DNA from: a bacterium
GTDB lineage: Bacteria > Orphanbacterota > Orphanbacteria > JBJXGV01
Assembly (NCBI GenBank): GCA_046160485.1
Contig: JBJXGV010000070.1
Coordinates: forward strand, 13,154-77,153
Direction of reading: 5' to 3'
DNA length: 64,000 bases
Position numbers and translations under genes: made by a program. The notes below the pieces were generated by a model. The model saw only the letters and a program-made list of their open reading frames with translations. It ran no database searches and was not told the origin of the DNA. This document shows positions 271 through 60,142 of this stretch, piece by piece (within the stretch, counting starts at the first letter, position 1; each line of letters starts with the position of its first letter).

Positions 271-1431
271 CTACTGAAACGTCGCCTTCTCTTCGAGGTA
301 GGAATCGTCGTCGAGGTCGAAGTACTCGCCGATCACGCGATCCATCTCGACGATCGCCTTCTTGAGCAGCTCGCGCTTCTCCTGATAGCGCAGAAACGCG
401 CTTCGATAGCCATTGATGACAATATGCCGCAGCTCGTACGGATTCAGGTCGAACGCGCGCGTCGCCAGATGCAGTTCCTTCGTCATCGTCGTGTCGGAGA
501 TCAGCCGGTTGTCCGTGTTGAGCGTCACGCGCAATCCTGCCTCGTGGTAGATGCGAAACGGATGTTCCTCGAGGTTTTCGACGACGCGCGTGTGCACGTT
601 CGACGAGAGGCAGATCTCGAGCGGAATGCGATGGTCGCAGACGAACGCCATCAGGTCGCGATCTTCATGAAGAAGCGTGCCGTGGCCGATGCGGTGCGCG
701 CCGCAATAGTGCAGCGCCTGGTGAATCGACTTCGGCCCGAACGCCTCCCCCGCATGCACCGTCGTGTTGATGTTGTTGTTCAGGATTCGGTAAAACGCCT
801 CGCGATGCTTCTTCGCGGGGTAATCCTTCTCTTGTCCCGCGAGATCGAACGCGACGACACCGGCGTTCTTGTAAGCGATCGCGAGCTCCGCAAGCTCGAG
901 CGAAACGTCGGGCGAGATCTGGCGAATGCCGCAGATGATCACGCCGGTGCGAATTCCCGTCTCCGCCTCGGCGCGCTTGAGCCCCCGCAAAACAGCGTCG
1001 ACCGAATCCGCGGTCTCCATCTTCCGCTCGAGGTGCAAGACCGGCGAGTAGCGCACCTCCATGTACCAGATGTTCTCGGCGGCCGCGTCGATCCCGAGTT
1101 CGTACGCCGCGCGCTCGAGCCCCTCCGGCTCCTGCAGAACCTTGAGCGTGATATCGAAGATGCGCAGGTAGTCGACGAGACTCTTGCAGTCGTCGCCGAC
1201 GAGGAGCATTCTCGCGAGCTCCGCCTGCGACCGCGCGCCGAGATCGACGCCCTGCTGCTTCGCCAGGTCCCAAATCGTCGGGATGCGCATCGATCCATCG
1301 ACGTGCACGTGCAGGTCCGTCTTCGGAATCCGCGCGATCATCTCCATCGGGAGCCCGCGCACTTTTCCGCCCGCCCCTTTCTTCGTGTTTCCTTTCTTGT
1401 CGCCGCCCGAGCGCGCTTTCTTGTCCGGCAC
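271..1431 (-). CDS. add: Adenosine deaminase
   Basis: 386-aa ORF with DLHVHVDGS metal-binding motif near N-terminus and TLNTDN motif near C-terminus, typical of adenosine deaminase. Lys-rich N-terminal 28 aa; true start may be the internal Met near 1347. Confidence 0.8.
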   Translation of the reverse strand: MPDKKARSGGDKKGNTKKGAGGKVRGLPMEMIARIPKTDLHVHVDGSMRIPTIWDLAKQQGVDLGARSQAELARMLLVGDDCKSLVDYLRIFDITLKVLQEPEGLERAAYELGIDAAAENIWYMEVRYSPVLHLERKMETADSVDAVLRGLKRAEAETGIRTGVIICGIRQISPDVSLELAELAIAYKNAGVVAFDLAGQEKDYPAKKHREAFYRILNNNINTTVHAGEAFGPKSIHQALHYCGAHRIGHGTLLHEDRDLMAFVCDHRIPLEICLSSNVHTRVVENLEEHPFRIYHEAGLRVTLNTDNRLISDTTMTKELHLATRAFDLNPYELRHIVINGYRSAFLRYQEKRELLKKAIVEMDRVIGEYFDLDDDSYLEEKATFQ

Positions 1432-1448
1432 GAATTCCTCCTCGCGGC

Positions 1449-2045
1449 CTACGCCGTGGTTCCCCGCTCCTCGATTGCCATGATCTTCGCAACGCGCCGC
1501 TCATGCCGCCCGCCCGCAAACGGCGTCTCGACGAAAATACGCGCGATCGTCCGCGCAAGCCCGCGCTGAACACTCCCCGCGCCGAGCGCCAGCACGTTCG
1601 CATCGTTGTGCTCGCGCGCGTTTCGCGCCGTACGTTCGTCGTGGCAGAGCGCCGCGCGCACGCCGCGCACCTTGTTCGCCGCCATCGTCGAGCCGATCCC
1701 CGCGCCGTCGATGAGAAGCCCGAAGCGCGCCTCGCCGCTCGCCACGGAGCGCGCGACTGCGAGCGCCAGATCGGGGTAGTCGACGGCCTCCTCGGAGTGC
1801 GTTCCGTGGTCGATCACGCGCCAGGCGAGTTCTTCCTCGAGGAATCTCCGGAGCGTCTCCTTGAGTCGGTAGCCTCCGTGGTCGGCGCCGACGGCGATCG
1901 TCTTCGCGGGCGGCGCGGACGCGGCGTGCGGCGCGCGCGCCGCGGGCGCTGCGGCGGCACCGCGGCTCGGCGCTGCGCCGGCGGCCTCGGAGAGCGCCTC
2001 GATCACGAGTCGCCGGATCTCGCCGCGGTCGATCTCGCGCGTCAT
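1449..2045 (-). CDS. rpiB: Ribose-5-phosphate isomerase B (RpiB/LacA/LacB family)
   Basis: IAVGADHGGYRLKE and GLLIDGAGIGSTMAANKVRGVRAALCHD motifs; start 5 nt from the stop of the upstream kinase gene. About 45-aa Ala/Pro-rich N-terminal extension of uncertain reality. Confidence 0.75.
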   Translation of the reverse strand: MTREIDRGEIRRLVIEALSEAAGAAPSRGAAAAPAARAPHAASAPPAKTIAVGADHGGYRLKETLRRFLEEELAWRVIDHGTHSEEAVDYPDLALAVARSVASGEARFGLLIDGAGIGSTMAANKVRGVRAALCHDERTARNAREHNDANVLALGAGSVQRGLARTIARIFVETPFAGGRHERRVAKIMAIEERGTTA

Positions 2046-2049
2046 CGCT

Positions 2050-2688
2050 CTACGTCCTCGCCTCGGGCGCGCGCACGCTGCGCGGCAGCGCCGCCGCGAT
2101 CCAATGCCACGCCGTCTTGTTCGTCAGGAAATCGACCTCCTCCGCGGGAACGTGCACGACGTGCGTCTCGCGAGCGACGCGCTCAATCCACGTGTCGTAC
2201 GCGTCACCGAGCCGCGCGAGGTAGTCGCGATCGATCCGCTTCTCGTAATCGCGTCCGCGCGAACGCACACGCTCGAGCAGGAACTCCGGAGAGGCGCGCA
2301 GGTAGACGATCATGTCCGGCCGCTTCAAGTGACTCGTCAGAATCGCGTAGAGCCGCTGATACATCTGGTGGTCGACGTCGCTTAAGAGCCCCTGCGCGTG
2401 GAGCGCCGTCGCGAAGATCTCGCCGTCTTCGTAAATCGTCCGGTCGACGATGTAAAAACGCTCCTCGCGGCCGAGTTGTTCGAGCGCCTCGTAGCGCCGC
2501 GTGAGGAAGTAGATCTGCGAGTGAAACGCCCAGGCCTTCGGGTCGGCGTAGTACTTCTCCAAATACGGGTTCTCGATCGTCGGCTCCAGATAAGCGCGCC
2601 AACGGAGATTCTCCTCGAGGATCCGCGTGAGAGTCGACTTGCCCGCGCCGATGTTGCCCGCGATGCCGAGGAAGAAGCCGGAAGCCAT
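2050..2688 (-). CDS. Deoxynucleoside kinase (dAK/dGK/dCK family)
   Basis: Start placed at internal Met (MASGFFLGIAGNIGAGKSTL P-loop); conserved E-P and DRTIYED motifs. The listed 261-aa ORF carries an Arg-rich shadow extension. Confidence 0.8.
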   Translation of the reverse strand: MASGFFLGIAGNIGAGKSTLTRILEENLRWRAYLEPTIENPYLEKYYADPKAWAFHSQIYFLTRRYEALEQLGREERFYIVDRTIYEDGEIFATALHAQGLLSDVDHQMYQRLYAILTSHLKRPDMIVYLRASPEFLLERVRSRGRDYEKRIDRDYLARLGDAYDTWIERVARETHVVHVPAEEVDFLTNKTAWHWIAAALPRSVRAPEART

Positions 2689-2696
2689 CGGCCGCC

Positions 2697-3149
2697 TCAG
2701 CCCGGGCTCTTGAATCGGAAGCTGTCTGGGAGCAGTACGTCGAGTGTTTGCACGTCCACACGGCCCGCAAGATCGGACATGATCACGCGCAGCGCGCCGC
2801 CGAACTCGGAGAGCGCCTGGCGGCAGAGCCCGCACGGCCGGACGGGGCCGTCCGTGTCCGCGACGATCGCGATGGCGTCGAACTCGAGTTCGCCCGCTGT
2901 CACCGCCGCGAAGAGCGCCGCGCGCTCGGCGCAGACTGTCACGCCGTACGATGCGTTCTCGACGTTGACGCCGCGATACACACTGCCGGATCGCGCCAGA
3001 AGCGCCGCGCCGACAGGGAATCGTGAGTATGGCGCGTAGGCGTTCGCCCGAGCCGCCGCCGCCGCCGAGACGAGCGCGTTGTCATCCAACGGAGGCGCTC
3101 GCGTCGATCGGCTGAAAGCACGCGCGGCAGCGCGGCTCGTAGATCGCAC
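2697..3149 (-). CDS. cdd: Cytidine deaminase
   Basis: [11 protein letters not shown] and PCGLCRQ zinc-binding motifs. Maximal ORF overlaps tdk; the true start is probably a non-ATG codon near 3090. Confidence 0.75.
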
Positions 3150-3663
3150 CGCCGCCGATGACGACGCGCTCGTGCGATTCGATGAGGCGCTGCGATTTCG
3201 TCGCGGGGCGCCCGCACACGACGCATATCGCCGTCACCTTCGTGATCGAGTCGGCGATCGCGAGGAGCTGCGGAATCGGTTCGAAGGGCTTGCCGAGGTA
3301 ATCCTGGTCCAGTCCGGCGACGATGACGCGCACGCCGCGCGCGGCGAGCGCTTCGCAAACCTGCACGAGCGGCCCCGCGAGAAACTGCGCCTCGTCGATT
3401 CCGACGACGCGCGTGTCGGCGTCGACGAGATCGAGAAGTTCGTCAGCCCGCGAAACGGCGACGGACTCGACGGAGCGCGCATCGTGCGAGACGATCGTGT
3501 CCTTGGAGTAGCGCGTGTCGATCGCCGGCTTGAACGCCTGCACTTTTTGCCGCGCGATCGCGGCGCGGCGAAGGCGCCGGATCAGTTCCTCGCTCTTCCC
3601 GCTGAACATGCATCCGCAGATCACCTCGATCTGCCCGGACGACGAATCGATTCCTTCGATCAT
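3082..3663 (-). CDS. tdk: Thymidine kinase
   Basis: [17 protein letters not shown]-loop, VIGIDEAQF, and C-terminal CxxC...CxxC zinc ribbon (CVVCGRPA...PRCRAC). Confidence 0.85.
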
Positions 3664-3747
3664 GCGGCGATGCTATCAACCGCGGGCGCGCGGTGCAATC
3701 GCGAAGCCCGCGCCCTCGCCCGGGGATCTTCCGCGGATGCCCGCGAC

Positions 3748-5418
3748 TCACCTCTGCCGCGCCGCGGCCTTGTAGAGCTGCACGAAACCCGTTCCCGGCG
3801 AGACGAAGATCCTCTCGTACCCATACGAAAGCTGCTTGAGAATCCCCTTCGCGGCCAAGTTGTGCTCGTGCTCGGGGCCGAAGCCGCTGACGAGAATGTA
3901 GTCGACGCTCGCTCCGGTGCGCTTCGCGTAGTTGATGAAATCGACCCGCGGCGGCTCCGCCTCCATGTCGGGATCGGACCCGAATGCGCGGAACGGGTTC
4001 CGCTCGAACCGGTATCGGACCGGGAATACCGAGGTGTTCGCTTCGTAGTTGCGCACGTCGATTGCGCCTCGCTCCGCTGCGATGGCGGCGCCGGTGTGGA
4101 GAAATGGCTTGATGCGAGTCGAGAGCGGGCTTCCGTCCGCCGAGCGTCCGCGATGCGAGAAGCCGAGCGAGAGAATCGTTGAGTTCGGCGCAACCAGAGG
4201 CGCTGCGGTCAGACTCTCCGCGAGCAACTCGCCGGCGGCGAGGATCGTCGGCTGCCGCGCCAGCAAGAAGGCGATCCCGAACGCGAAGCCCGAGACGGCG
4301 GCGGTGCGCGCTATCCACGGCCGTAACGGCGCGCTTCCGATCGCGATGATGAGGGCCAGGACGGCGAACACCAGGATGCGGCCATTGACGTACCAGCATC
4401 CTCCGACTCCGGACGGCGCCGCGAAGTAGAGAGCGAAAAGGCTCGCCGCCGCCGCGAACAGACCCGCCGAGGGGACGCTGTCGGAATCCCGGCGGCGGAC
4501 GATCAACGCGAGTGCGAAGAGAAGCGCGAGGCAGGCTGCGTACGCAATTCCGAAGGGACGCTCGTTTTCGTTGAGCGCCACGAGCGGATCCATCGTCATG
4601 AGCTCTCGCGTCAGTTTCGCCGTTGAGACCCAACCCACTCCATGCGACTCTCCGTTGCGCTGATAGATGGCGAAGAGGGCGATCGCAGGGAGTGCTGCGA
4701 CGAGTGGCGCCAAAAGCCGGGCGCGCAGCGATCCGGGCGGCGAAGTTTCCGCGGCCCCGTTCGCCGGCCGGCCCCGATGCCGGATGCGATCAGACACCGT
4801 TGTCCAGAGGGTGACCGCTCCGATCACGAGGCCGAGCGCCCCGAGCGCGATGAGATGGCTCGCGTAGAGAAGCAGGCAGAACACCATGAACAGGCCGATC
4901 TGCCGCCAGGTCCGAAGGCCGCCGCGACGGAGCCAATAACCGAACGCCACGCACCAGACGACCACGCCGAGGCAGAAGTTGTAGAAGCCCATCTGTAGGT
5001 GCCAGCTCAGAATGAACGGGGTCGACAGAAGCGCTAGCGACGCGGCGCTCGTCCGTGTCGAGCCCAGGGCGAACCGCACTGCGAGCGCGAACGCGATGAC
5101 GTAGGTCGAGAGGAATACTTTTTCGGCGACGACCGGGGAGAACATCGTCAGAAGAAACGCCAGTGTGGCGTGGCCGAGCCAATTCGGACTTGGCGTGGCG
5201 TTCACCTCGTAGTACTCCCCGAACGCTGGCGATTCCGGATCTGAGATTCGAAGCAGGGCATCGGCGTTGTGAAGGTGCGCGGGCCCATCTTGGGTTGGGA
5301 AGCGCGCAGGCCACCAGATCAGCGCCACGTGAAGCAGGATGATCGTCGCAAGGCCGATGTCCGGCAGGGCGAGGAAGCGACTCGCCCCCCGGGGGTTCAC
5401 GGACTCACTTCCATTCAT
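3748..5418 (-). CDS. Polytopic membrane protein of unknown function embedded in the nucleoside operon
   Basis: Many hydrophobic helices ([26 protein letters not shown] etc.) and a C-terminal soluble domain. Start set at internal ATG 5416-5418 (MNGSESV) to avoid deep overlap with deoB. Confidence 0.5.
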
Positions 5419-6628
5419 CGAGAAAGCTGCGCCCTGGGCCGGGGTTCCTGACGGCAAAGAAGTCCGCGATGGTCGCAGCCAGGTCGGCGAACGTGTCGCG
5501 CAAACCGAGGTCGCGCCCGATCGGCGTCGAAGCGCGTGCGCTCCCATCCTCGATTCCTCGCGGCGTGGCCGCTCCGCCTATGAAAAGCAGCGGCACGAGT
5601 TCGCGCGAATGGTCCGTCGACGGCGTCGTGGGATCGCAGCCGTGGTCCGCGGTAAAGACAAGGCGGTCGCCGGGGCCGAGCGCGTCGATGAGCGCGGGAA
5701 CACGCGCGTCGATCTCCTCGAGAGCGCGAGCGTAGCCGGCGGTGTCGTTGCGATGGCCCCACAACATGTCGGTCTCGACGAGATTCGTGAAAAGAAATCC
5801 GCGCTCGAGTTCGGCGAGCCCGTCGAGCGTCGCGTCGAGGCACTCGGCGTTCGACTTCCCTCCGAGCGAACACGTTATGCCGCGCCCCGCGAAGATGTCG
5901 GGAATCTTGCCGACGCCCCAGACGGGAACGTGTGCCGCCTCGAGGACCTCGCAGATCGTCGGCGAAAGCGGCGGGAGCGAGAAGTCGTGGCGCCGCGGCG
6001 TGCGCGCGTACGCGCCGCTCTCCCCCGCGAAGGGCCGCGCGATCACACGGCCCACGGCGTGCGGGCCGGTGAGAATGCCGCGCGCCGTCTGACAGATCGC
6101 GTACAACTCCTTGACGGGAATCACCTCTTCGTGAGCTGCGATCTGGAAGACGCTGTCCGCCGACGTGTAAACGATCGGCTTGCCGGTGCGGCGATGTTCG
6201 TCGCCGAATTCCTCGATGATCGCGGTGCCTGACGCCGCGCGGTTCGCGAGCACGCCGCGGCCGATCGCCGCCTCGAACGGCTCGAGCACCTCGCGCGGAA
6301 ATCCGTTCGGGTACGTTGGAAACGCGCGATCCACGACGCACCCCGCCATCTCCCAATGCCCGCTCGTCGTGTCCTTCCCGTGGCTCCGCTCGCGCATCCG
6401 GCCGAACGAAGCACGCGGCGCGAGCGACGGCGGAACGCCCGCGATGTCGAGCAGATTCCCGAGCCCGAGCGATTGAAAGTTTGGAAGCCGCAGCCCGCCG
6501 ACAACGCGCGACAAATTACCGAGCGTGTTCGATCCGAGATCGCCGTACTCCGCCGCGTCGGGCGCCGCTCCAGCGCCGACTCCGTCGAGGACGATCACGA
6601 CGAACCGAACAGGAGGGCGCGAACTCAT
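5405..6628 (-). CDS. deoB: Phosphopentomutase
   Basis: N-terminal [13 protein letters not shown] and C-terminal TADHGCDPT motifs of the DeoB/alkaline-phosphatase superfamily; 407 aa. Confidence 0.85.
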
Positions 6629-7383
6629 CGGCGCGCGCTCCGTGCGGCGTCGACGAGCCGCCGCACGCGCGCCGCATCGACGGGGTTCGATGTGATGCCA
6701 CCCTGCTTCACGCTCGTGCCGACGATCGCCGCGTCGACGAATGGCGCGAGCGCCGCGGCATTCCCTTCGGCGAGGCCGCTTCCGAGGACGAGGCGCGCGC
6801 CGGGCGCGGCGTGACGAACCGATGCAAGGTACTCCGCGTCAGGCGCCGAGCCTGTGGCGGCGCCGGAGACGACGATCGCATCCGCGCCGGCGCGCCCCGA
6901 CAGCTCGGCGAGTTCCACCTTCGCATCGCGCTCGCCGAGCGGCGCGGCGTGCTTCGCGCGAAAGTCGGCCCACACCTCGACTCGGGCGCCGATCGCGCGG
7001 CGCCGCCTCATGATGGCGTGCGACTCGCCGCGCAGAAGCCCCTCGCCCGCTACCGCCAGCCCCGCGAACACGTTGACTCGAATAAACCGCGCACCCGTCG
7101 CCGCTGCGATGGCGAGCGCGGAGAGCGCGTCGTTCCGAAGCACCTGCACTCCGACCGGCGCCGGGCTCAGCGCGACGATGCGCGCGACGATCACCGACAT
7201 CGCTGCGACGGTGATTGCGTCGACGCGCCGCGGAACGAACGGCGTGTCGCCGTAGTTCTCGACAAGAAGCGCCGCGACGCCGCCGTCCAACAAGGCGCGG
7301 GCGTCCGCCACAGCAAGCTCGGCGATCTCGTGCACGGAGTGTTCAGCGCGCGGGCTTCCCGGCAGCGGTGCCAGGTGCACCAT
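6625..7383 (-). CDS. BtpA/SgcQ-family TIM-barrel protein
   Basis: Start at internal Met ([11 protein letters not shown]..., ATG at 7381-7383); the upstream 228 codons of the listed ORF are Arg-rich shadow. 4-nt overlap with the deoB start. Confidence 0.65.
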
Positions 7384-7436
7384 CCCGATGATCGGAAACA
7401 CCTCGGCGTCGAGTGACCACGGCGTCGCGTGCGCCA

Positions 7437-8696
7437 CTACGCCCGCTCCCCATCGCCGGCGCCGTCGCACCGAGATCCACGCAGCGCCGCCCCTTCGCCG
7501 CGCCCGCGCGGTGCCGCCGCGATCCCCTTCGTCTGCGCAAGAGACGCCGCGATGGCCGAGTGCGCGCGCCGTTTGACCGCGATCATCTCGGCGACGATCG
7601 ATACGGCGATCTCTTCGGGCGTCACGGCGCCAATATCGAGCCCGATCGGTGCGTGAAGCGCCAAGAGCCGCGCTTCGGGAATACCGCGCGCGAGCAACTG
7701 CGCCGCGGCGCGCTCGTGCTTTCTGCGGCTGCCGATTACGCCGAGGTAGCGAGTCGGCGGCAAGCGCAAGAGTCCCTCGAGCACCTGCTCGTCGTACTGG
7801 TGGCCGCGCGTTGCAAGAACGACGAAGTCGTGCGGCGCGAAGTCGACGCGCTCCGAAAGCTCCGCATAACCGGGAAGGACGATGCGGCGCGCGCCCGGAA
7901 AACGCTCGGCGGCGACGTACTTCTCGCGGTCGTCGACGACTGTGACTTGAAATCCCGCAGCGGTCGCGGCGGCGTGCACCGCGCGCGATACGTGCCCGGC
8001 GCCGATCAAGACAACGCGCGGGCGACCCACGACCGGTTCGAGATAGATCGCGCCGCCCGCCGCCCATGCAGAGCGTTCGTCGCGCACGGCGCTCATGGCA
8101 GTCGAGTGCAGCGCTTGCGGAAGCACCGCCAGACCGAGCAGGGGTTCGCCCTCTTCGCCGAGAACGATCCGCGCGGGAGCAGACGCGCCGCTCGCGCGAT
8201 CGCGCGGTGCCGCCGGTTCCGCGCGTGTTCCGATGAGCGGCGGCCCGCCATCGGAGAAAATTCGCGCGAGCACGCTCGTCGTTCCCAACTCGGTGCGGCG
8301 CTCGAGCAACTCACAAAGCGCGATGTCGCCCAATTCGAGCCGTTCCAGGAGAATCTCGACGGTTCCTCCGCAAACCATCCGCAATTCTTCTTCGGTTTCG
8401 GTCAATGTGAACACAACGCGCGCCCACCCTCCGGCCGCGCGCAGCTTCTGCGCCTCGCGCTGCACCTCCGCTTCGAGACAGCCGCCGCCAACGGTACCAA
8501 TCGCTTCGCCCGTATCGGAGACGAAGAGGCGCGACAGCACGGGCGCGGGCGTCGAGCCATGCACCGACGCGATCGTCGCCATCACGCCGCCGCCACACCG
8601 CGCCAATTGTTGCGCGCATTCACCAAAATGATTTCGAGAAGACACCGCGTCGCACTCCTCTCTGACGAGATCTGGTATCATGATATCACTTCGCAC
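7437..8696 (-). CDS. XdhC/CoxI-family accessory protein
   Basis: N-terminal VMATIASVHGSTPAP...TVGGGCLEAEV and central Rossmann-like VVLIGAGHVSRAV motifs typical of XdhC. Start may be 8681 or 8696. Confidence 0.65.
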   Translation of the reverse strand: MRSDIMIPDLVREECDAVSSRNHFGECAQQLARCGGGVMATIASVHGSTPAPVLSRLFVSDTGEAIGTVGGGCLEAEVQREAQKLRAAGGWARVVFTLTETEEELRMVCGGTVEILLERLELGDIALCELLERRTELGTTSVLARIFSDGGPPLIGTRAEPAAPRDRASGASAPARIVLGEEGEPLLGLAVLPQALHSTAMSAVRDERSAWAAGGAIYLEPVVGRPRVVLIGAGHVSRAVHAAATAAGFQVTVVDDREKYVAAERFPGARRIVLPGYAELSERVDFAPHDFVVLATRGHQYDEQVLEGLLRLPPTRYLGVIGSRRKHERAAAQLLARGIPEARLLALHAPIGLDIGAVTPEEIAVSIVAEMIAVKRRAHSAIAASLAQTKGIAAAPRGRGEGAALRGSRCDGAGDGERA

Positions 8697-8745
8697 AGTG
8701 CGAAGATCGACCCCCGTCGAACGCCATCAACCTCGGAGTCACAAG

Positions 8746-10995
8746 ATGAGCTGCACGCGCACCGCTTGCTTTGCATCCGCTCTCGTCTTCGCCGTACTGC
8801 TTGCGCCGTCCACCCCGAGCGCGCAGGTCGTCCTCAACGAAATCCTACCGAACCCCGCCGGCGACGACGTCGGCACAGAACGCATCGAAATCGTGAATGC
8901 TGGGCCGACATCCGTCGACGTGACGGGATGGGCCATCGATGACGCCGCGACGATCGATGAAGTGGGCGTGCGCTGCCGGATCCCTGAAGACTTCGACACC
9001 TCGGTCTGCTCGGGAAGTGCCATCCTCGCGCCGGGAGAGTTTCGCGTCGTGAAGGGAACATCCACGGCCGCGTTTCTCAACAACAGCGGTGACGACGTCT
9101 ACCTCATCAAAGATCGCACGCTCGCGCCGGTCGTCGCCGACCTCGTTACGTATCCGAGCGCGGCTCTGCAAGTCGACATGACGTGGGGCGCGATTCCGAA
9201 CGGGTCCGAGAACTTCGCGTGGCGAACGAAGACGCTCTGCGGGTCGAACGGCGGAGCGGGCGACTTCATCGCGCCCTCGACGATCGCGGATCTCGCCGCG
9301 GTGTCGGGTGCGTACTCCGGCGAAGTGCGCCTCACGTGGACCGCGCCCGGCGACGACGGCATGACCGGCACCGCGAGCGCATACGAATTCAAGGTTGCCC
9401 TCTCGTCGATCAACGCGGGGAATTTCGACACCGCGACCGATCTCGAATTTTGGATCAACGCGCCGCTGCCGCAGGCCGCGGGCACCGCGGAAACGCTTGT
9501 TGTCTTCGGGCTCGATCCCGCGTTCACGTGGCACTTCGCGGTGAAGGCGGTCGATGACGCGGCGAACCTCGGCGCCGTCTCGAACAGCCCGAGCGCGCTG
9601 CCGCTTGCAGGCGCGCTCCCCGATCCGAATCTTGGCGGCAACGTCTACTTCGGAAATCTGCATGCGCACACCGGATACTCGGACGGGCAGCTCACGCCCG
9701 CCGACGCCTACAGCTTCGCGCGGAACACGGCGCCGACGCCGCTCGACTTCCTCGCGGTAACCGATCACAACCACGCCGGCGCGGGAATGTCGCTGCCGAA
9801 CTATTCGCTCGGGCTCGCGCAAGCTGCCGCGGCGAACGATGACGGCAACTTCGTCGCGATCTACGGGCAGGAGTGGGGATTCGCTTCGAACGGACACGTC
9901 AATATTCTGGAAGCGCCCGTGCTCTTCGGCTGGGAGGCCGGCAACTACGACGTATTCGTCGCGGAAGGCGACTACCCGAGCCTCTACACCGCCGCGCTCG
10001 CGAACCCGCCCGCTTCCTATCCGGTGGTTCTGCTCTGGTGTCATCCTGCGGCGAGCGACTTCGACAACCTCGCCGTCACGAGCGATGGATTGGCGGCGGT
10101 TCATCTCATGTGTCTTGTGAACGGTCCCGCGTTCTCGACCGCGACCGACGAAACCGACGTCGGCAACACGGGCTTCGACGATGTTTTCCACGAAGCGCTC
10201 CGCAAGGGATACCGCGTTTCGCCGACCGCCGACCAAGATAATCACAACGTTACGTGGGGTGCGTCGTCGCAGAGTCGTACCGCGGCGCACGCGAGCACCA
10301 AATCGAAGGCCGCGATTCTCGGCGCGCTCGCGGCCGGCAACAACTACGCGACTCAGGATCACAACGCGCGTGTCGACTTCACCGCGGACGGGCACGGAAT
10401 GGGCGAGGCGTTCACGGCGACGAGCGGCGTGCGAATCGCGGTGCGCGTGACGGACCCGGATGTCGGCGAGACGGTGTCGCTCATCGAACTCTTCCGCGGT
10501 ATCCAAGGTGTTTCATCCGCGGTCCGCGTCGCGTGGAACGCCGACAACAACGAGCTGCATTGGCGCGAGCTCGAAGAGTTCGCCGACGGGACCGAGGTGC
10601 ACTACACGCTGCGGATCCGTCAGGGCGACAATCACAGCATTTGGACCGGACCCGCGTACATCACCTATCAATCCGCGACGGGCGTTGCGGACGGAGCGAG
10701 CGCTCCGGCGTCGGCCATTCGCCTCGCTTCCCCCACGCCGAATCCGACGCGCGGCGCAACGCGCATGGCGTTCGCCTTGCCGCGCGACGTCGCCCGCGTG
10801 CGCGCGACGTTGTTCGACGTCGAGGGACGGTTGACGCGTGTCCTTCTCGACCGGCCGCTCGGCGCGGGCAATCACGAGGTCAGGTGGGACGGCGGCCTCG
10901 CGTCGGGCCGCCAGGCGCCGCCGGGCATCTACCTGCTCCGGCTCGATGCGGGCGACGAAGGATCCGCCACCGCGAAGATTCACCTGCTTCGCTAA
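8746..10995 (+). CDS. Secreted multidomain protein: signal peptide, lamin-tail domain, Fn3-like domain, PHP phosphoesterase domain, C-terminal FlgD-like/sorting-type beta-sandwich tail
   Basis: Start at internal Met (MSCTRTACFASALVFAVLLAPSTPSAQ signal). LTD motif VVLNEILPNPAGDD...ERIEIVN...VDVTGWAIDD; PHP motif YFGNLHAHTGYSDGQ...VTDHNH; C-terminal tail PPGIYLLRL. Confidence 0.75.
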   Translation: MSCTRTACFASALVFAVLLAPSTPSAQVVLNEILPNPAGDDVGTERIEIVNAGPTSVDVTGWAIDDAATIDEVGVRCRIPEDFDTSVCSGSAILAPGEFRVVKGTSTAAFLNNSGDDVYLIKDRTLAPVVADLVTYPSAALQVDMTWGAIPNGSENFAWRTKTLCGSNGGAGDFIAPSTIADLAAVSGAYSGEVRLTWTAPGDDGMTGTASAYEFKVALSSINAGNFDTATDLEFWINAPLPQAAGTAETLVVFGLDPAFTWHFAVKAVDDAANLGAVSNSPSALPLAGALPDPNLGGNVYFGNLHAHTGYSDGQLTPADAYSFARNTAPTPLDFLAVTDHNHAGAGMSLPNYSLGLAQAAAANDDGNFVAIYGQEWGFASNGHVNILEAPVLFGWEAGNYDVFVAEGDYPSLYTAALANPPASYPVVLLWCHPAASDFDNLAVTSDGLAAVHLMCLVNGPAFSTATDETDVGNTGFDDVFHEALRKGYRVSPTADQDNHNVTWGASSQSRTAAHASTKSKAAILGALAAGNNYATQDHNARVDFTADGHGMGEAFTATSGVRIAVRVTDPDVGETVSLIELFRGIQGVSSAVRVAWNADNNELHWRELEEFADGTEVHYTLRIRQGDNHSIWTGPAYITYQSATGVADGASAPASAIRLASPTPNPTRGATRMAFALPRDVARVRATLFDVEGRLTRVLLDRPLGAGNHEVRWDGGLASGRQAPPGIYLLRLDAGDEGSATAKIHLLR

Positions 10996-11004
10996 CGTAT
11001 CGCG

Positions 11005-12519
11005 TTGCCGCCGCTCGACACCATCACGCGCGAGCCGAAGGCGTCCGATCTCGACGCGGGCGCCGCGGGGCTCGTCCAGCGGATGCACGCCGTGATCGAG
11101 CAGCTTCACGTCGCGCGCGCGGAGCTCTCGCCCGATGCCGTGCACGACCTCCGCGTTGCGCTTCGCCGATGCCGATCGATCGCCGAAGGCGCCGGGGCGA
11201 TCGACTCGCATCGAAGCTGGCGGCGCCTTCGCCGTGCGAGCCGGTCGCTCTTCCGGCAGCTCGGCGCGCTGCGCGACGCTCACGTGATGGCGGAGTGGAT
11301 CGAGAAGCTTGCGCCCGCCGGCGATACCGCGCGCGAACGCCTCTCCGCGCAGATTCACGCACGCGAAGCCCAGCTCGCTCGGTCGGCGCGCGACGCCGTG
11401 TTCGAGTTCGACGACGCCGCGTGGCGCGCGCTCGCCGCGGTGGTCGCCGCGCGCGCGGAGAGGCTGCGCCCTGGCAGCGCCGTCTTCCGCCACCTTGCGC
11501 TCGAGCGCTGGACCGAGGCGCGTGCGCTTCACGATGCCGCCCTCGAAAGCGGCAGCGGTGAGGCGTTCCACGCGCTGCGCATCGGCGTGAAGCGATTTCG
11601 CTACACCGTCGAAAACTTTCTTCCTCGGAAATACGAGGTGTGGGCGAAGCAGTTCAAGCGCGTTCAGGACTCCCTCGGCGAGATGCACGACCTCGACCTG
11701 CTCTGGGGCGCCATCGCCGCCGCCGAGCCGCCGCTTTCCGACGAGGAGCTGGCCGAGTGGCGCGACGTGCTCAGCAACGAACTCGAATCGCGTCTCTCCG
11801 ACTACCACGAACGCATGAGTGGCGATGATTCTCTCTGGGCGGAGTGGCGGGACGGGCTGCCGGACGAAGGCGCGCTTCCCGCCGTTTCGTTCGCGCGCGT
11901 TGCGGCCTGGGCCGCGCTCCGCGACCCGGCTCCGCGCCACGCGCGCCGTGTCGCGAGGCTCGCCGTGGAAATCTTCGACGGCCTCGGCGCGCTCGAGCGA
12001 GCACATCCGTTCGGCGATCGACGATCCCGGCGGTCTCTGCGCGGGGCGGCGCTCGCGCATCACATCGGACGCGCGGGCGGCCGCAGCCGCCGCCACAAGC
12101 GCACCTATCGATTGCTCACCGAACTGCGCGCACCGCTCGGTTGGGAAGAAGATGAGATTCGCGCGGTGGCGATCATCGCGCGCTACTATCGCGGGTCAGA
12201 GCCGCATGCGTCCCATGCGGGCTTTCGCGATCTCGACGCCGCGGGCCGCACGGCGGTCTCCGCACTCGCGGGCGTCCTGCGCATCGCAGACGCGCTCGAC
12301 AGCCGGCACGACGGCGCGGTCGCGCATGTGCGCGTCGAGTCGGCGCCCCCCGCGATTCTCGTTCGAGCGTTCGGATACGAAGAGGACCAACGCACCGCGG
12401 CTCGCATGGGCGGCAGAAAGCGACTTCTCGAGTCCGTTCTCGGCCGTCCGATCGTGGTCTTGGGCGCGCAGCGCGACGAGTCGCCTGCCATTCGCGCCGG
12501 AGCGCGCCCTCCGCGCTAA
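11005..12519 (+). CDS. CHAD domain protein fused to a Ppx/GppA C-terminal (HD-like) domain
   Basis: CHAD signatures (VHDLRVALRRCRS; FHALRIGVKRFRY). C-terminal 200 aa align block by block with the C-terminal domain of the neighbouring Ppx (HARRVARLAVEIFDGL vs HAEHVRSLALSLFDQL; AIIARYYRGSEP vs ACLVRYHYKAEP). Confidence 0.75.
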   Translation: MPPLDTITREPKASDLDAGAAGLVQRMHAVIEQLHVARAELSPDAVHDLRVALRRCRSIAEGAGAIDSHRSWRRLRRASRSLFRQLGALRDAHVMAEWIEKLAPAGDTARERLSAQIHAREAQLARSARDAVFEFDDAAWRALAAVVAARAERLRPGSAVFRHLALERWTEARALHDAALESGSGEAFHALRIGVKRFRYTVENFLPRKYEVWAKQFKRVQDSLGEMHDLDLLWGAIAAAEPPLSDEELAEWRDVLSNELESRLSDYHERMSGDDSLWAEWRDGLPDEGALPAVSFARVAAWAALRDPAPRHARRVARLAVEIFDGLGALERAHPFGDRRSRRSLRGAALAHHIGRAGGRSRRHKRTYRLLTELRAPLGWEEDEIRAVAIIARYYRGSEPHASHAGFRDLDAAGRTAVSALAGVLRIADALDSRHDGAVAHVRVESAPPAILVRAFGYEEDQRTAARMGGRKRLLESVLGRPIVVLGAQRDESPAIRAGARPPR

Positions 12520-13013
12520 CGCGCCAACGCGCGCAGCATCTTTCCGGTAAGCAGCCAACCGATCGTCGCCTGCGGCGGGACGGCGGATTTCATTTCGAGG
12601 CACGCGATGCCGGCTTTCTTCAACGCGGTCGCCGCGCCCTTGGCACCCAGCGCGAGGGAGATCATCTCGTCGAGGTGCGTGGCATGGCCGAAACACGCGA
12701 CATCCTTGCCGTTGAGCTTCGCGATCTCCTGAAAGATCGCGCGCGGATTCGCGCACGGCTTGAGCGCCGCGGTCTTGCGAAGTGCCGACTTCGAAACGTC
12801 GAAGGCTGCGGCGAAAAGCTCGGCCGTCTCGAGCGCGCGCGTGTAGGGACTCGTAAGAAAGACCTCGGGCGCCGCGCCGAGCGCGCGGAAGCCGCGCGCT
12901 GCGGCTTGCGTTTTGAGGATTCCGTCCGCCGTCAACGCACGCGCCGGATCGGCGGGCGAAGCGGGGTCGTTCCGATCGATCGCGATTCCATGCCGCACGA
13001 CGTAGAGCCTCAT
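12516..13013 (-). CDS. sixA: Histidine phosphatase family protein (SixA-like phosphohistidine phosphatase)
   Basis: MRLYVVRHGIA N-terminal RHG motif, about 165 aa, conserved late His (CFGHATH). Confidence 0.7.
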   Translation of the reverse strand: MRLYVVRHGIAIDRNDPASPADPARALTADGILKTQAAARGFRALGAAPEVFLTSPYTRALETAELFAAAFDVSKSALRKTAALKPCANPRAIFQEIAKLNGKDVACFGHATHLDEMISLALGAKGAATALKKAGIACLEMKSAVPPQATIGWLLTGKMLRALAR

Positions 13014-13037
13014 GATTTCTGAAAATCCCCCTCGAGC

Positions 13038-14579
13038 CTAGTGGGCCGCCGCCGACTCGACGCGCACGACCACGCCGAATTCTTCTTCGAAGAGGCTCGC
13101 ACGCCGCGCAGCCTCATCGATCGATCGCCTTTCGGCTTTCGCCGGCGTCACGCGAATGACCACTTCGCCGCGAACGAACGCGACGTCGACCCGGCGAACG
13201 GCGCGACCCATGTCGACGTCGAGCGCGGACGCGAGGCGAAGAATCGCGGTGAGCCCGCGCACCTGATGTTGCCGCTCCGTATCGAGCCCTCCGTACACCT
13301 TGTGATCGGGCACCGGTTCCGCTTTGTAGTGATAGCGCACAAGACACGCGAGCATGTCGCGCCGCCATCCGTTGATGCCATCGATCTCGCCGTGGCGCAC
13401 GAGATATTCGCCGTGTTTGTGATGATCGCGATGGTTGACGAAGTGCCCCGCGTCGTGAAGAAGCGCGCCGAGCGACAAAACGACGCGCTCGTCGCGGCCC
13501 ATTCCGTGCAGCGGGCGGAGCTGATCGAAAAGCGAAAGCGCGAGCGATCGCACGTGCTCGGCGTGTTTCATGTCGCAGTGAAGCCGCCGCCCGAAGGCGC
13601 GCGCCTTCTCGAGAAGCAACCGCGAACGCGCGTCGTCCGGCCCGATCGCCGGCAGCGCGAAGTGGCCGCTTACGAGGTCGTCGAGCACGCCTTCGCGAAC
13701 GCCGACGCCGGGCACGAGCAACTCGCGCAGCGAGAGCATCCGCCCGAGAGTCGTGAATATGATCGCGGCGATTCCCATCACCTCGGCGCGGTCGCGGCGC
13801 ACATCGAAGAGCCGCATCCGTCCGCGAACGTCGTTCGAGAGAATCTGCGGGAGGCGGTTCGTCAGCACGCGAAGGCTCAGCGACGGGATGCCGTGCGGCC
13901 GCCGGCCCGGCGCGATCTGCGCGAGCGCTTCCGCGTTTCCGCCGCAGGCCACGACGACGGCGCGCGACAGGTCGCCTGCGCGAGAAAGATTGCGTCCGAT
14001 CTTCGCGACGATGCGGCGCTCGAGCGCGGCTCGCATCGCCGCGTCGATTTTGCCGGACACGTCGAACGTTTCCATAAGGCGCACGGTCCCGACCGGAAGC
14101 GTGACGCTCCGCTCGACGTCGCCGCCGCGCATCAGGTTCAGCTCCAAGCTCCCGCCGCCGAGATCCACGATCAATCGCGGCGCAAGATCTTCCCCCAGGC
14201 TCGCGCGCACGGCCGCGCGCACCAGGCGTGCTTCGTCATTGCCGCCGATGACCGTAAGCCGGATGCCCGACTCGCGCTGAATCCGGCGTAGGAGCGCGGC
14301 GCGATTCTTCGCCTCGCGCGTCGCCGAGGTCGCCACCGCGCGGTACTTCGTGACGTGATACCGGTTCATGAGCGCGCGGAAGTGGCAAAACGCCTTCGCT
14401 GCCGCGGCGATCGTCGCGCGGTCGAACGCACCATCCGTGAAGACGTTGTGCCCGAGCCGAACGGGGACGCGCTCCGTCTCGAGCACGCGGACGCGAAGCG
14501 GCGACTCGGCGCGGGCGATCAACAAGCGAATCGCGTTCGATCCGGCGTCGATCGTCGCGAACTGAACCGGTGCGTTCAC
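13038..14579 (-). CDS. ppx: Exopolyphosphatase / guanosine pentaphosphate phosphohydrolase (Ppx/GppA)
   Basis: GTG start at 14577-14579 (VNAPVQFATIDAGSNAIRLLIA); IVDLGGGSLEL actin-like fold motif; C-terminal LLHDAGHFVNHRDHHKH HD-like domain. The listed 747-aa ORF has a long shadow N-terminus. Confidence 0.8.
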   Translation of the reverse strand: MNAPVQFATIDAGSNAIRLLIARAESPLRVRVLETERVPVRLGHNVFTDGAFDRATIAAAAKAFCHFRALMNRYHVTKYRAVATSATREAKNRAALLRRIQRESGIRLTVIGGNDEARLVRAAVRASLGEDLAPRLIVDLGGGSLELNLMRGGDVERSVTLPVGTVRLMETFDVSGKIDAAMRAALERRIVAKIGRNLSRAGDLSRAVVVACGGNAEALAQIAPGRRPHGIPSLSLRVLTNRLPQILSNDVRGRMRLFDVRRDRAEVMGIAAIIFTTLGRMLSLRELLVPGVGVREGVLDDLVSGHFALPAIGPDDARSRLLLEKARAFGRRLHCDMKHAEHVRSLALSLFDQLRPLHGMGRDERVVLSLGALLHDAGHFVNHRDHHKHGEYLVRHGEIDGINGWRRDMLACLVRYHYKAEPVPDHKVYGGLDTERQHQVRGLTAILRLASALDVDMGRAVRRVDVAFVRGEVVIRVTPAKAERRSIDEAARRASLFEEEFGVVVRVESAAAH

Positions 14580-14581
14580 CC

Positions 14582-15349
14582 CTAGCGCCAAAGAGGAGCG
14601 AGCGCGGCCGAAGGCTGGTAGCGTGTTCTGCGAATGCCGAGGTGCTGCGCGATGCGGCGGCGAAGCCCGTTGTTGATCGCGCGAATCCCCAGCTCGCCGT
14701 CCATCTCCTCGAACTTGTGGCGCCGCGAGAGCGACTGGAACTGCGTGCGGACCAACTGCTGGTAACGGATAAACGAGCGATACAGATCGTTCGAGAGCGA
14801 CATATCGCGCCCCGCTTCCCAATAGCTGATGACGCTCGACTTCTTGAACTCGCGTTCGAACGCGGCTTGCGGGCCGACCTTGAGCCAGAACGTCAGGTCG
14901 GGGCGAAGCGCCATCGCGTAGAGGCCGTGCAGGTATTCGCGCGAAAGCCCGCGCACCGCGCTCCGCGCGATCAGCGAGTAGATGTAGCGGTCGGCGAGCA
15001 CGACCATTCCCGATCGAAGGGCCGGAATGATGCGGTGCTCGAGCTGATCGAAGAAGTCGGTGGCGTACATGAGCGCGAGCGTCAGGCGCGTGACGGCGTT
15101 TTCCGCGAGAAGGTTGTCGATGTCGCGCGCCACGAGATTCGAGCGCCGCAGTCCCATCGTCTGGACTGGAAACCCCTCGGACTCGAGCCACTCTTTCAGA
15201 AGCGCGATCTGGGTCGACCGCCCGGAGCCGTCCGTCCCTTCGATGACGATCAGAGAGCCCGACAGCTCTTCGGGTGCGCACCCGGGAAGCACGGTTCCGT
15301 AGAAGCGTGTCGCCTCGACCGACGCCGCCTTTCGCTTTCGCGTCGTCAT
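14582..15349 (-). CDS. Thymidylate kinase-like P-loop kinase (paralog 1)
   Basis: Start at internal Met (MTTRKRK); LIVIEGTDGSGRSTQ P-loop and VLADRYIYS (DRY) motif. Confidence 0.7.
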   Translation of the reverse strand: MTTRKRKAASVEATRFYGTVLPGCAPEELSGSLIVIEGTDGSGRSTQIALLKEWLESEGFPVQTMGLRRSNLVARDIDNLLAENAVTRLTLALMYATDFFDQLEHRIIPALRSGMVVLADRYIYSLIARSAVRGLSREYLHGLYAMALRPDLTFWLKVGPQAAFEREFKKSSVISYWEAGRDMSLSNDLYRSFIRYQQLVRTQFQSLSRRHKFEEMDGELGIRAINNGLRRRIAQHLGIRRTRYQPSAALAPLWR

Positions 15350-16077
15350 CGGCGCGGACCGAACCGGCTCAGATCGATTCGCGTTGCGACCTTCGCCCGC
15401 ATATCTTCTTGCAGTTTGTTCACGGGCAACGTGCCGTCCATCAGCACGAAATTGTCGGTTGCGATCATCTGCTCGTACTCGTCCATGATCATTCCCTGGA
15501 AGCGGCGGAAACTTTCGCCGGGATCGAACGACAATCCCAAGTCCATCCCCGCCTCGTAGTGTTTGAGTTTCGGGCGCCCGCCGAGGATGCGATTGACCGC
15601 GACGTCGAGCGGCGCGCGGAAATAGAACGTGATATCGGGAATCGGCGCGAAGCCGTAGAGATTGCGAAGCCACGCCGTCGAGCAGCCGCGAGCCGAGTCG
15701 CGCGCGAACGCCGTGTAGATGTAGCGGTCCGCGAGCACGAGGTAGCCGCTCTGCAACAGCGGGAGAATCTGCCGCTCGCACCGGTCCGCGAAATCGGCGG
15801 AGTGCAGAAGCGAGAACGTGACGGGCGTCAGGAGCCGGCGGCGTTTTCCGCGCCGCGTCGCCGCCTTGACGAGCAGCGACGAATTCCACTCGGTGAAGTG
15901 AATCCGGTACCCCGAGATCTCGAGCCAGCGCTTCAGAAGATAAAGCTGCGTGCTCTTCCCGGAGCCGTCGATTCCTTCGACGACGATGAGCGCGCCAGGA
16001 TAGTCGCGGCCGCCCGTGTTCCGCGCACTGGCGCGGAGCGCCGCCGCGCGCGGCTCTTTTGCGAGGACGCGTGTCAT
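15346..16077 (-). CDS. Thymidylate kinase-like P-loop kinase (paralog 2)
   Basis: LIVVEGIDGSGKSTQ P-loop and LVLADRYIYT motif; 4-nt overlap with paralog 1. Confidence 0.7.
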   Translation of the reverse strand: MTRVLAKEPRAAALRASARNTGGRDYPGALIVVEGIDGSGKSTQLYLLKRWLEISGYRIHFTEWNSSLLVKAATRRGKRRRLLTPVTFSLLHSADFADRCERQILPLLQSGYLVLADRYIYTAFARDSARGCSTAWLRNLYGFAPIPDITFYFRAPLDVAVNRILGGRPKLKHYEAGMDLGLSFDPGESFRRFQGMIMDEYEQMIATDNFVLMDGTLPVNKLQEDMRAKVATRIDLSRFGPRR

Positions 16078-58441: not shown

Positions 58442-58466
58442 CGCGCGCGCGCCACGACGGCCGGCG

Positions 58467-60083: not shown

Positions 60084-60142
60084 ATCGCGCCGCGCCGAAA
60101 CTCGTCCGCCGTGCTGAATCCTCCGCGGGCTATAATCGCGGC

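Follow-up and report, generated by a model that had tools for sequence, protein, structure and literature searches.

What does a large, apparently exported protein do when it is encoded between nucleoside genes and polyphosphate genes and combines a lamin tail with a putative metallohydrolase domain? The question is raised by an open reading frame (ORF) in contig JBJXGV010000070.1 (assembly GCA_046160485.1, positions 13,154 to 77,153); that whole stretch of 64,000 nucleotides, with a GC content of ~66%, is called the window here. A sequence-only reading had described the product as a secreted fusion of a lamin tail domain (LTD), an Fn3-like domain, a PHP-type phosphoesterase domain and a C-terminal beta-sandwich, with a role in scavenging extracellular nucleic acids or phosphoesters. 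By sequence comparison and modeling, the protein is predicted to be an exported modular metallohydrolase of the CehA/McbA/TM0559 branch with a complete PHP metal-ligand set. With about half of our confidence, we read it as a secreted phosphoesterase that scavenges extracellular nucleic acid or organophosphate, and it would probably help an uncultured soil or sediment bacterium to digest extracellular DNA or other phosphate esters. The parts of the gene and of its 749-amino-acid (aa) product are as follows.

8746..10995, + strand: whole gene (from the ORF) for a 749-aa protein of the order LTD, Fn3, PHP, Fn3 and C-terminal domain (CTD); stop codon at 10993-10995
8735..8738, + strand: GGAG, a ribosome-binding-site-like motif read from the sequence, 7 nt before the ATG at 8746
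8746..8823, + strand: predicted Sec-type signal peptide, residues 1-26, MSCTRTACFASALVFAVLLAPSTPSA/Q, from hydropathy and n/h/c layout, with a putative cleavage site
8824..9240, + strand: lamin tail domain, residues ~27-165, from Pfam PF00932 and an all-beta model
9286..9621, + strand: Fn3-like domain 1, residues ~181-292, with an LTWTAPGDDG motif, from an ortholog profile and the model
9631..10365, + strand: PHP-fold metallohydrolase barrel, residues ~296-540, with putative ligands H306, H308, D313, H341 (H343), E376, H384, H433, D498 and H500
10366..10677, + strand: Fn3/Ig-like beta-sandwich 2, residues ~541-644, always joined to the PHP barrel (the two together form the cassette)
10678..10719, + strand: disordered linker, residues 645-658, with a predicted local distance difference test (pLDDT) score of <50 and 29% identity across orthologs
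10720..10992, + strand: FlgD_ig/type IX secretion system (T9SS) type-A-like sorting domain, residues 659-749, with the motifs PNP, GIYLLRL and, at the end, K-x-x-L-L-R

The + strand ORF spans 8680..10995, and the ATG at 8746 was preferred over a start at 8680 because of the GGAG at 8735-8738. The resulting MSRTR... N-terminus is common to the two closest orthologs, in agreement with this start. The 749-aa product matches NCBI MFN0152308.1, "MAG: CehA/McbA family metallohydrolase [bacterium]" (MAG, metagenome-assembled genome), with 100% identity. More than 120 full-length ortholog clusters were found at 55-88% identity to the protein, and 56 loci in a scan of one genome per species carry the ortholog. 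Among the loci with titles, nearly all orthologs are in Candidatus Eisenbacteria MAGs; Latescibacterota has one ortholog locus, at 49% identity, and distant relatives at 29-31% identity occur in Anaerolineae. The window itself thus almost certainly derives from an Eisenbacteria MAG. The LTD-PHP gene is thus real, strongly conserved and single-copy-like. Mean identity to the window protein over the orthologs was 72% for the PHP barrel, 67% for the LTD, 60% for Fn3-like domain 1, 58% for beta-sandwich 2, 44% for the CTD, 29% for the linker (residues 645-658) and 24% for the signal peptide. This gradient fits a catalytic core, a binding module of functional importance and sorting signals that are not retained.

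For the catalytic region, NF038032 of NCBIfam is the only curated profile whose threshold is exceeded. It aligns residues 301-605 with profile positions 3-283 of 315 and scores 84.3 bits, the cutoff being 80. Because NF038032 is a model of the "domain" type, membership does not imply carbamate-ester hydrolase activity. In Pfam, DUF3604 alone appears over the region, at 18.5 bits and thus under its gathering score of 20.4, and PF02811 (PHP) was matched by one ortholog (P0014) and one distant homolog; weak NCBIfam motif matches to small-molecule PHP phosphatases were also seen. A PolX with a genuine Pfam PHP domain is encoded in the same window and was used as a PHP reference. Alignment of the cassette profile with this domain by hhalign gave an E value of 2e-5, with the HxH..D, DH and E motifs aligned. 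Nine positions, H306, H308, D313, H341, E376, H384, H433, D498 and H500, show no variation among 47 orthologs or among 34 homologs at 32-40% identity; we take them to be the full YcdX/histidinol-phosphate phosphatase ligand set of a trinuclear PHP site. The PHP ligand motif set (HxH + D/H, H, E, H, H, DxH) is accordingly present by sequence position.

The model of residues 290-650, built on the 34 distant homologs, reached a pLDDT of 91.4 and contains the distorted (beta/alpha)7 barrel of the PHP superfamily. A Foldseek search with the whole-protein model returned only Ig/Fn3-rich receptors. The structural neighbors of the cassette model and their scores were as follows.

2anu: TM0559, PHP family, 17.1
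3e38: two-domain PHP-like protein, 16.8
7rty: PsfC, 13.2
5zb8: EndoQ, 12.2
3o0f: putative metal-dependent phosphoesterase, 11.4
9etk: RNase AM, 10.3
3f2b, 9qpc, 3au2, 2hpi and 1m65: PHP domains of PolC, PolC-type Pol III, PolX, Pol III alpha and YcdX, respectively, 8.6-10.1

Because of the NF038032 score, the fold match, the alignment with the PolX PHP domain and the nine-ligand set, we assign the protein to the PHP superfamily by predicted fold and putative ligands. The PHP claim of the sequence-only reading therefore stands on these grounds, although the Pfam PHP profile misses the domain. Its profile score, just over the cutoff, also places the protein in the NCBIfam CehA/McbA domain family.

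The cassette itself is widespread. A search of 1.84 billion cluster representatives gave 2,711 matches at an E value of ≤1e-3 and 174 at ≤1e-30, in proteins of 365 to 3,319 aa, and the cassette directly follows the signal peptide in 61 of 118 near-full-length matches. Named carriers include Chitinophagaceae, Ferruginibacter, Ignavibacteriales and Acidobacteriota, and their proteins are labeled "T9SS type A sorting domain-containing protein", "CehA/McbA family metallohydrolase" or hypothetical. In 42 multidomain relatives the partner domains were Por_Secre_tail (21), fn3 (20) and LTD (7), together with PKD, Big and cadherin-like domains, and no recurrent second catalytic domain was seen among these members. 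We found no paper on the PHP-barrel and sandwich cassette family or on DUF3604. Since the existing annotation already gives the correct family name, the architecture is common across the phylum and the cassette is widespread, the protein is an ordinary addition to a large, known, uncharacterized family of secreted PHP proteins.

The N-terminal modules point to export and to substrate binding. The predicted signal peptide has an n-region Arg and a 12-residue h-region, FASALVFAVLLA, followed by PSA/Q in the heuristic analysis, and residues 1-30 form the sole hydrophobic stretch of the 749-aa protein. The same n/h/AxA/Q layout stands directly before the LTD in 47 of 47 aligned orthologs, which supports the earlier call of a signal peptide. 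The segment is the least conserved of the protein and was modeled at a pLDDT of <50. A lipoprotein signal was rejected, since no lipobox is present and Cys3 and Cys8 stand before the h-region. For the LTD, PF00932 matched residues 22-126 at 44 bits against a gathering score of 34.3, and segment 28-161 was all-beta in the model with a pLDDT of ~75-85, so that this part of the earlier domain list is borne out. In ortholog mean identity the LTD is second only to the catalytic domain. Its Cys88 and Cys165 are invariant across the aligned orthologs, which is compatible with a disulfide and an oxidizing compartment.

Segment 181-292 of the window protein has no Pfam match, and 8 of 12 orthologous segments matched PF00041 (fn3). 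A profile of these orthologs matched the Fn3 domain of chitinase A1 (1k85) with an E value of 2.6e-5, and the segment was modeled as a beta-sandwich with a pLDDT of ~90; the Fn3-like domain proposed earlier is thus well placed. Every domain element named by the sequence-only reading was correct, and what it overlooked is the second Fn3-like sandwich at residues 541-644.

The C-terminus had been described as a beta-sandwich tail. A sandwich is indeed indicated by Pfam FlgD_ig (PF13860; residues 668-735, 35.7 bits against 27), but it is not generic and rather resembles a T9SS type A sorting domain. Alignment of the Eisenbacteria CTD profile with Por_Secre_tail-positive Bacteroidota CTDs by hhalign gave a probability of 98% and an E value of 2.7e-13, and the same profile matched the PorU and RgpB CTDs in PDB. 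The motifs PNP, GIY-x-x-RL and terminal K-x-x-L-L-R were seen in the CTD alignment, and the domain reaches the last residue. Precomputed matches to PF18962 were present in 10 of 120 orthologs, and Pfam Por_Secre_tail was found on distant cassette homologs in two sets, on 24 of 34 in one and on 21 of 42 in the other. By profile comparison, the CTD is therefore homologous to T9SS type A sorting domains. FlgD identity was rejected because the Ig-like part alone matches, NF005176 scored 33.6 bits against a cutoff of 230 and there are no flagellar neighbors. We found no literature that links Eisenbacteria with T9SS or a PHP domain with T9SS.

The same CTD ends a second phosphoesterase ORF in the window (stop at 62977), where it scored 63.8 bits with a hidden Markov model from the LTD-PHP ortholog CTDs. 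This second large, exported-looking phosphoesterase (~60100-62980, + strand; stop-to-stop ORF 58442-62977) has TPR repeats, Pur_ac_phosph_N, a calcineurin-like Metallophos domain and a C-terminal FlgD_ig/T9SS-like domain. T9SS type-A-like CTDs on Candidatus Eisenbacteria proteins were thus observed at 10720-10992 and 62700-62977 of the window and at loci L004-L049. A further ORF, 58467-60083 (+ strand), starting MTRFFLVGAERDVPMRFALREGPQTIGRASDCDITL..., is FHA-domain-like by eye; it has an overlap, in a different frame, with the long ORF leading into the purple-acid-phosphatase-like gene.

The neighboring genes were examined on both sides of the LTD-PHP gene. The features that enter the argument are the following.

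271..8696, - strand: divergent nucleoside salvage/catabolism operon with Add, RpiB, dNK, Cdd, TK, an unknown membrane-like ORF, DeoB, BtpA and XdhC-like (Pfam)
11005..12519, + strand: CHAD + HD (Ppx-GppA domain III) gene (Pfam), which begins 9 nt past the LTD-PHP stop codon
24837..26780, + strand: PolX (HHH_8, HHH_5, DNA_pol_B_thumb and C-terminal Pfam PHP)

Both neighborhoods named by the sequence-only reading were recovered with Pfam: the nucleoside operon lies upstream on the minus strand, and the polyphosphate genes are directly downstream. The divergent operon arrangement was also found at L002 (84% ortholog) and L003 (67% ortholog), and direct divergence from the operon is confined to these three closest genomes. 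In five more distant loci, L019, L030, L033, L037 and L041, cdd and deoB are 5.5-7 kb upstream on the opposite strand. The nucleoside-salvage link is therefore recurrent, not general, and could be inherited synteny. For the context survey, six-frame ORFs of 59 loci were clustered. Spurious antisense ORFs were numerous because of the high GC content, and the neighborhoods that could be recovered were deoB/cdd and DUF5916/MazG/DUF1844 alone.

On the downstream side, a five-gene polyphosphate block (11005-16077) consists of the CHAD + HD gene, SixA, Ppx/GppA and two tandem Tmk-like genes. Our scan found no terminator-like site between the LTD-PHP and CHAD-HD genes, and from the 9-nt gap the two are probably cotranscribed. 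The block was present only in the window and L002 and absent from L003 and all other loci. In L003 the LTD-PHP gene is followed by two unknown ORFs, GDSL, TPR, VWA and AAA_5 genes, which are found beyond 16 kb in the window. Because the L003 flanks are syntenic and the block is limited to the window and L002, it appears to be a lineage-specific five-gene insertion.

From these data we propose a secreted phosphoesterase that would work as follows. The precursor would cross the inner membrane via Sec, and its C-terminal domain may guide it across or onto the outer membrane, as in Bacteroidota T9SS cargo. The LTD would keep the enzyme on a polymeric, probably anionic, substrate, while a metal-bridged hydroxide in the PHP site would split phosphoester bonds. 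The most likely substrates would be extracellular DNA, RNA, oligonucleotides or nucleotide-like organophosphates, and the freed phosphate and nucleosides could enter pathways such as that of the adjacent deoB-cdd-tk-dNK-add operon. A nucleic-acid or nucleotide-like substrate is preferred because the functionally known PHP neighbors are nucleases or nucleotide phosphatases, because the nucleoside operon is a recurrent neighbor and because LTDs are found on the extracellular nuclease ExeM, in which deletion of the LTD lowers in vitro DNase activity (PMC6085458), and on a candidate protein of a DNA-degradation locus (PMC8289736). The presence of an LTD with the cassette in 7 of the 42 distant multidomain relatives was counted on the same side. 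The scavenging function suggested by the sequence-only reading thus remains plausible.

A number of observations weigh against this proposal. Pfam PHP (PF02811) gave no match in the window protein at an E value of ≤1, and searches of PDB with the cassette sequence profile and with phmmer returned only FlgD/CTD matches and no PHP chain. The top structural matches, 2anu and 3e38, are structural-genomics proteins of unknown function, and the closest relatives as a whole (TM0559, 3e38 and the ~2,700-cluster cassette family) are uncharacterized and have no known substrate. The only characterized CehA/McbA-type enzymes hydrolyze carbamate esters (PMC8292978). The signal peptide was judged by heuristics and the putative active site by sequence position. 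The context argument from the nucleoside operon and the polyphosphate module is weaker than it appears: deoB and cdd are absent near ~19 of the ~26 loci that have 7 kb or more of upstream flank, the closed chromosome OZ245046.1 among them, and the contexts of two Bacteroidota cassette homologs were uninformative. Even where cdd and deoB are near, in the clade of the five loci named above, alr, DUF4126, a large conserved DUF5916-like ORF, MazG and DUF1844 intervene, so that the nearness may be inherited synteny. With regard to export, TIGR04183 scored 15.2 bits on the C-terminal domain, under its cutoff of 23, and reviews restrict T9SS to Bacteroidota (PMC10515386, PMC5445135). No T9SS core genes (PorK/L/M/N, SprA/Sov, PorV or PorU) were among the scanned genes of the 64-kb window, a genome-wide search not having been made.

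Three other explanations were weighed against the secreted nucleic-acid or organophosphate phosphoesterase. The polyphosphate genes suggest a general phosphate-scavenging phosphomonoesterase/diesterase or polyphosphatase that would act on small organophosphates or polyphosphate and be tied to the CHAD/Ppx/SixA module, a reading that we regard as unlikely. The CHAD-HD gene starts 9 nt past the stop codon without a terminator-like site between them, and Ppx/GppA, SixA and the two Tmk-like genes come next; however, the block is found only in the window and L002, whereas the LTD-PHP enzyme is kept phylum-wide. Furthermore, CHAD, Ppx and SixA are cytoplasmic, in contrast to the exported LTD-PHP protein. 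Among the characterized PHP enzymes are phosphatases of small molecules, for example those for histidinol-phosphate and pAp, and the weak NCBIfam motif matches agree with such an activity, as does the second CTD-bearing, purple-acid-phosphatase-like protein, which suggests a secreted phosphatase repertoire. The LTD and the two Fn3 modules, in contrast, suggest a polymeric or surface substrate.

A chemistry other than phosphoester hydrolysis would follow if the PHP metal site were reused on carbonyl groups, giving a CehA/McbA-like esterase, amidase or carbamate-type hydrolase for an extracellular organic or a cell-envelope/extracellular polymeric substance target. The CehA/McbA model is the sole curated family model that passes its threshold, but the margin is slight (84.3 against 80). 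McbA is an exported carbaryl hydrolase with essential PHP-like His residues (PMC8292978), yet CehA and McbA are recent xenobiotic specializations, whereas the LTD-PHP family is ancient and phylum-wide. The partners in the wider family are modules of the adhesion or carbohydrate type (Fn3, PKD, Big and cadherin-like), with no nucleic-acid-binding domain among the 42 members; against this stand the association of LTDs with nucleases and phosphatases and the full nine-ligand trinuclear set, which is typical of phosphoesterase PHPs. We consider a non-phosphate hydrolase about as improbable as the polyphosphate-linked phosphatase. Far less probable is a structural protein or adhesin of the periplasm or cell surface, in which the PHP domain has lost its catalytic activity or only binds a ligand. 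Four of the six modules are beta-sandwich domains of the adhesion type, and Foldseek with the whole model yields Ig/Fn3-rich receptors only, but the PHP barrel is the most conserved domain and its nine metal-ligand positions are invariant in the orthologs and in the 32-40% homologs.

Next, the LTD-PHP protein was compared with known systems. The closest structural neighbors, TM0559 (2anu) and Bacteroides 3e38, share only 15-17% identity and are missed by the sequence profile, and unlike the window protein they are not described with an LTD, an Fn3 module or a sorting domain. CehA and McbA share the NF038032 domain, and they are exported and depend on essential PHP-like His residues (PMC8292978). 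They cleave a carbamate ester in a xenobiotic pathway and are without the LTD, Fn3 and CTD modules of the window protein; their genes are on catabolic plasmids or transposons, whereas the LTD-PHP protein is encoded by a chromosomal core gene. ExeM of Shewanella and Xds of Vibrio resemble the window protein in having a signal peptide, an N-terminal LTD and then a metal-dependent phosphoesterase domain, and their role is extracellular DNA degradation. However, ExeM and Xds have an EEP catalytic domain and OB-fold regions in place of PHP, and ExeM has a C-terminal hydrophobic region where the window protein has the T9SS-like CTD. No EEP (Exo_endo_phos) or OB-fold match was found in the window protein with Pfam and NCBIfam, and for this reason we regard it as an analogue of ExeM and Xds, not a member of their family. 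PHP nucleases and phosphatases (EndoQ, 5zb8; RNase AM, 9etk; 3o0f; the PolX/PolC PHP domains; and YcdX, 1m65) are cytoplasmic and without an attached beta-sandwich, LTD or secretion signals, and they resemble the window cassette less than TM0559 and 3e38 do. T9SS type A cargo of Bacteroidota (RgpB and PorU) shares the Sec signal, a C-terminal beta-sandwich of ~90 residues and the PNP, GxY and terminal K-x-x-hydrophobic motifs. In contrast to this cargo, the window CTD scores better on FlgD_ig than on Por_Secre_tail and lies below the TIGR04183 cutoff, and it belongs to Candidatus Eisenbacteria, for which no T9SS was reported in the literature found.

A bolder version of the proposal, which we consider doubtful, would make the protein the founding example of PHP-fold nucleases or phosphodiesterases that act outside the cell. 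It would be a core enzyme throughout Candidatus Eisenbacteria and leave the cell by a CTD-dependent, T9SS-like route in a phylum other than Bacteroidota. The ~2,700-cluster cassette family of the Fibrobacteres-Chlorobi-Bacteroidetes (FCB) group would then be a major unrecognized class of environmental exoenzymes that degrade DNA or organophosphates. Should the main proposal hold, the better-known exoenzymes of the EEP, EndA/NucA and metallophosphatase types would gain a PHP-fold companion in the recycling of extracellular DNA and organic phosphorus in soils and sediments, and T9SS-type cargo proteins of a very large family without annotation would be given a function. It would also be indirect evidence of CTD-dependent secretion in Candidatus Eisenbacteria, which is known from metagenomes only. 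In practice, the analysis provides a well-defined construct and mutant list for assaying the LTD-PHP family.

Several minor features were recorded around the gene. A perfect palindrome with 8-bp arms, CTTCGCAC-A-GTGCGAAG, lies at 8689-8705, in the 50 bp that separate the divergent XdhC-like and LTD-PHP genes. As a shared operator it was rejected and is probably due to chance, since it is absent from all 59 loci; the sole near-copy, at 58515-58529, is within unrelated coding sequence. Scanning for sigma-70 promoters and intrinsic terminators gave nothing relevant. In 13 orthologous loci, a large gene precedes the LTD-PHP gene on the same strand, at a distance of one or two genes. It carries DUF5916 in L001 (6250-8922), and the copy in L037 (6136-8403) belongs to the same cluster and has no Pfam match; in one clade, MazG and DUF1844 genes stand between it and the LTD-PHP gene. 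This ORF cluster has no member in window positions 1-21000, the part that was clustered. At the Bacteroidota locus L061 (3804-6428), a protein with two LTDs and a CHU_C/FlgD_ig tail is encoded ~1.6 kb upstream of the cassette homolog P0137, which carries Por_Secre_tail and has a PfkB sugar/nucleoside kinase on its other side.

Within the nucleoside operon, the 599-aa ORF between TK and DeoB (3748-5547, - strand) has hydrophobic stretches, no Pfam match and no counterpart in the otherwise collinear L002 and L003 operons. Its start is probably further in, because the first ~140 nt of the ORF overlap the 3' end of deoB. At the promoter-proximal end, the BtpA and XdhC/CoxI-like genes (6625-8696, - strand) form an unusual pairing that is kept in L002 and L003, and the BtpA ORF as called has 480 aa, against 265-269 aa in its relatives.

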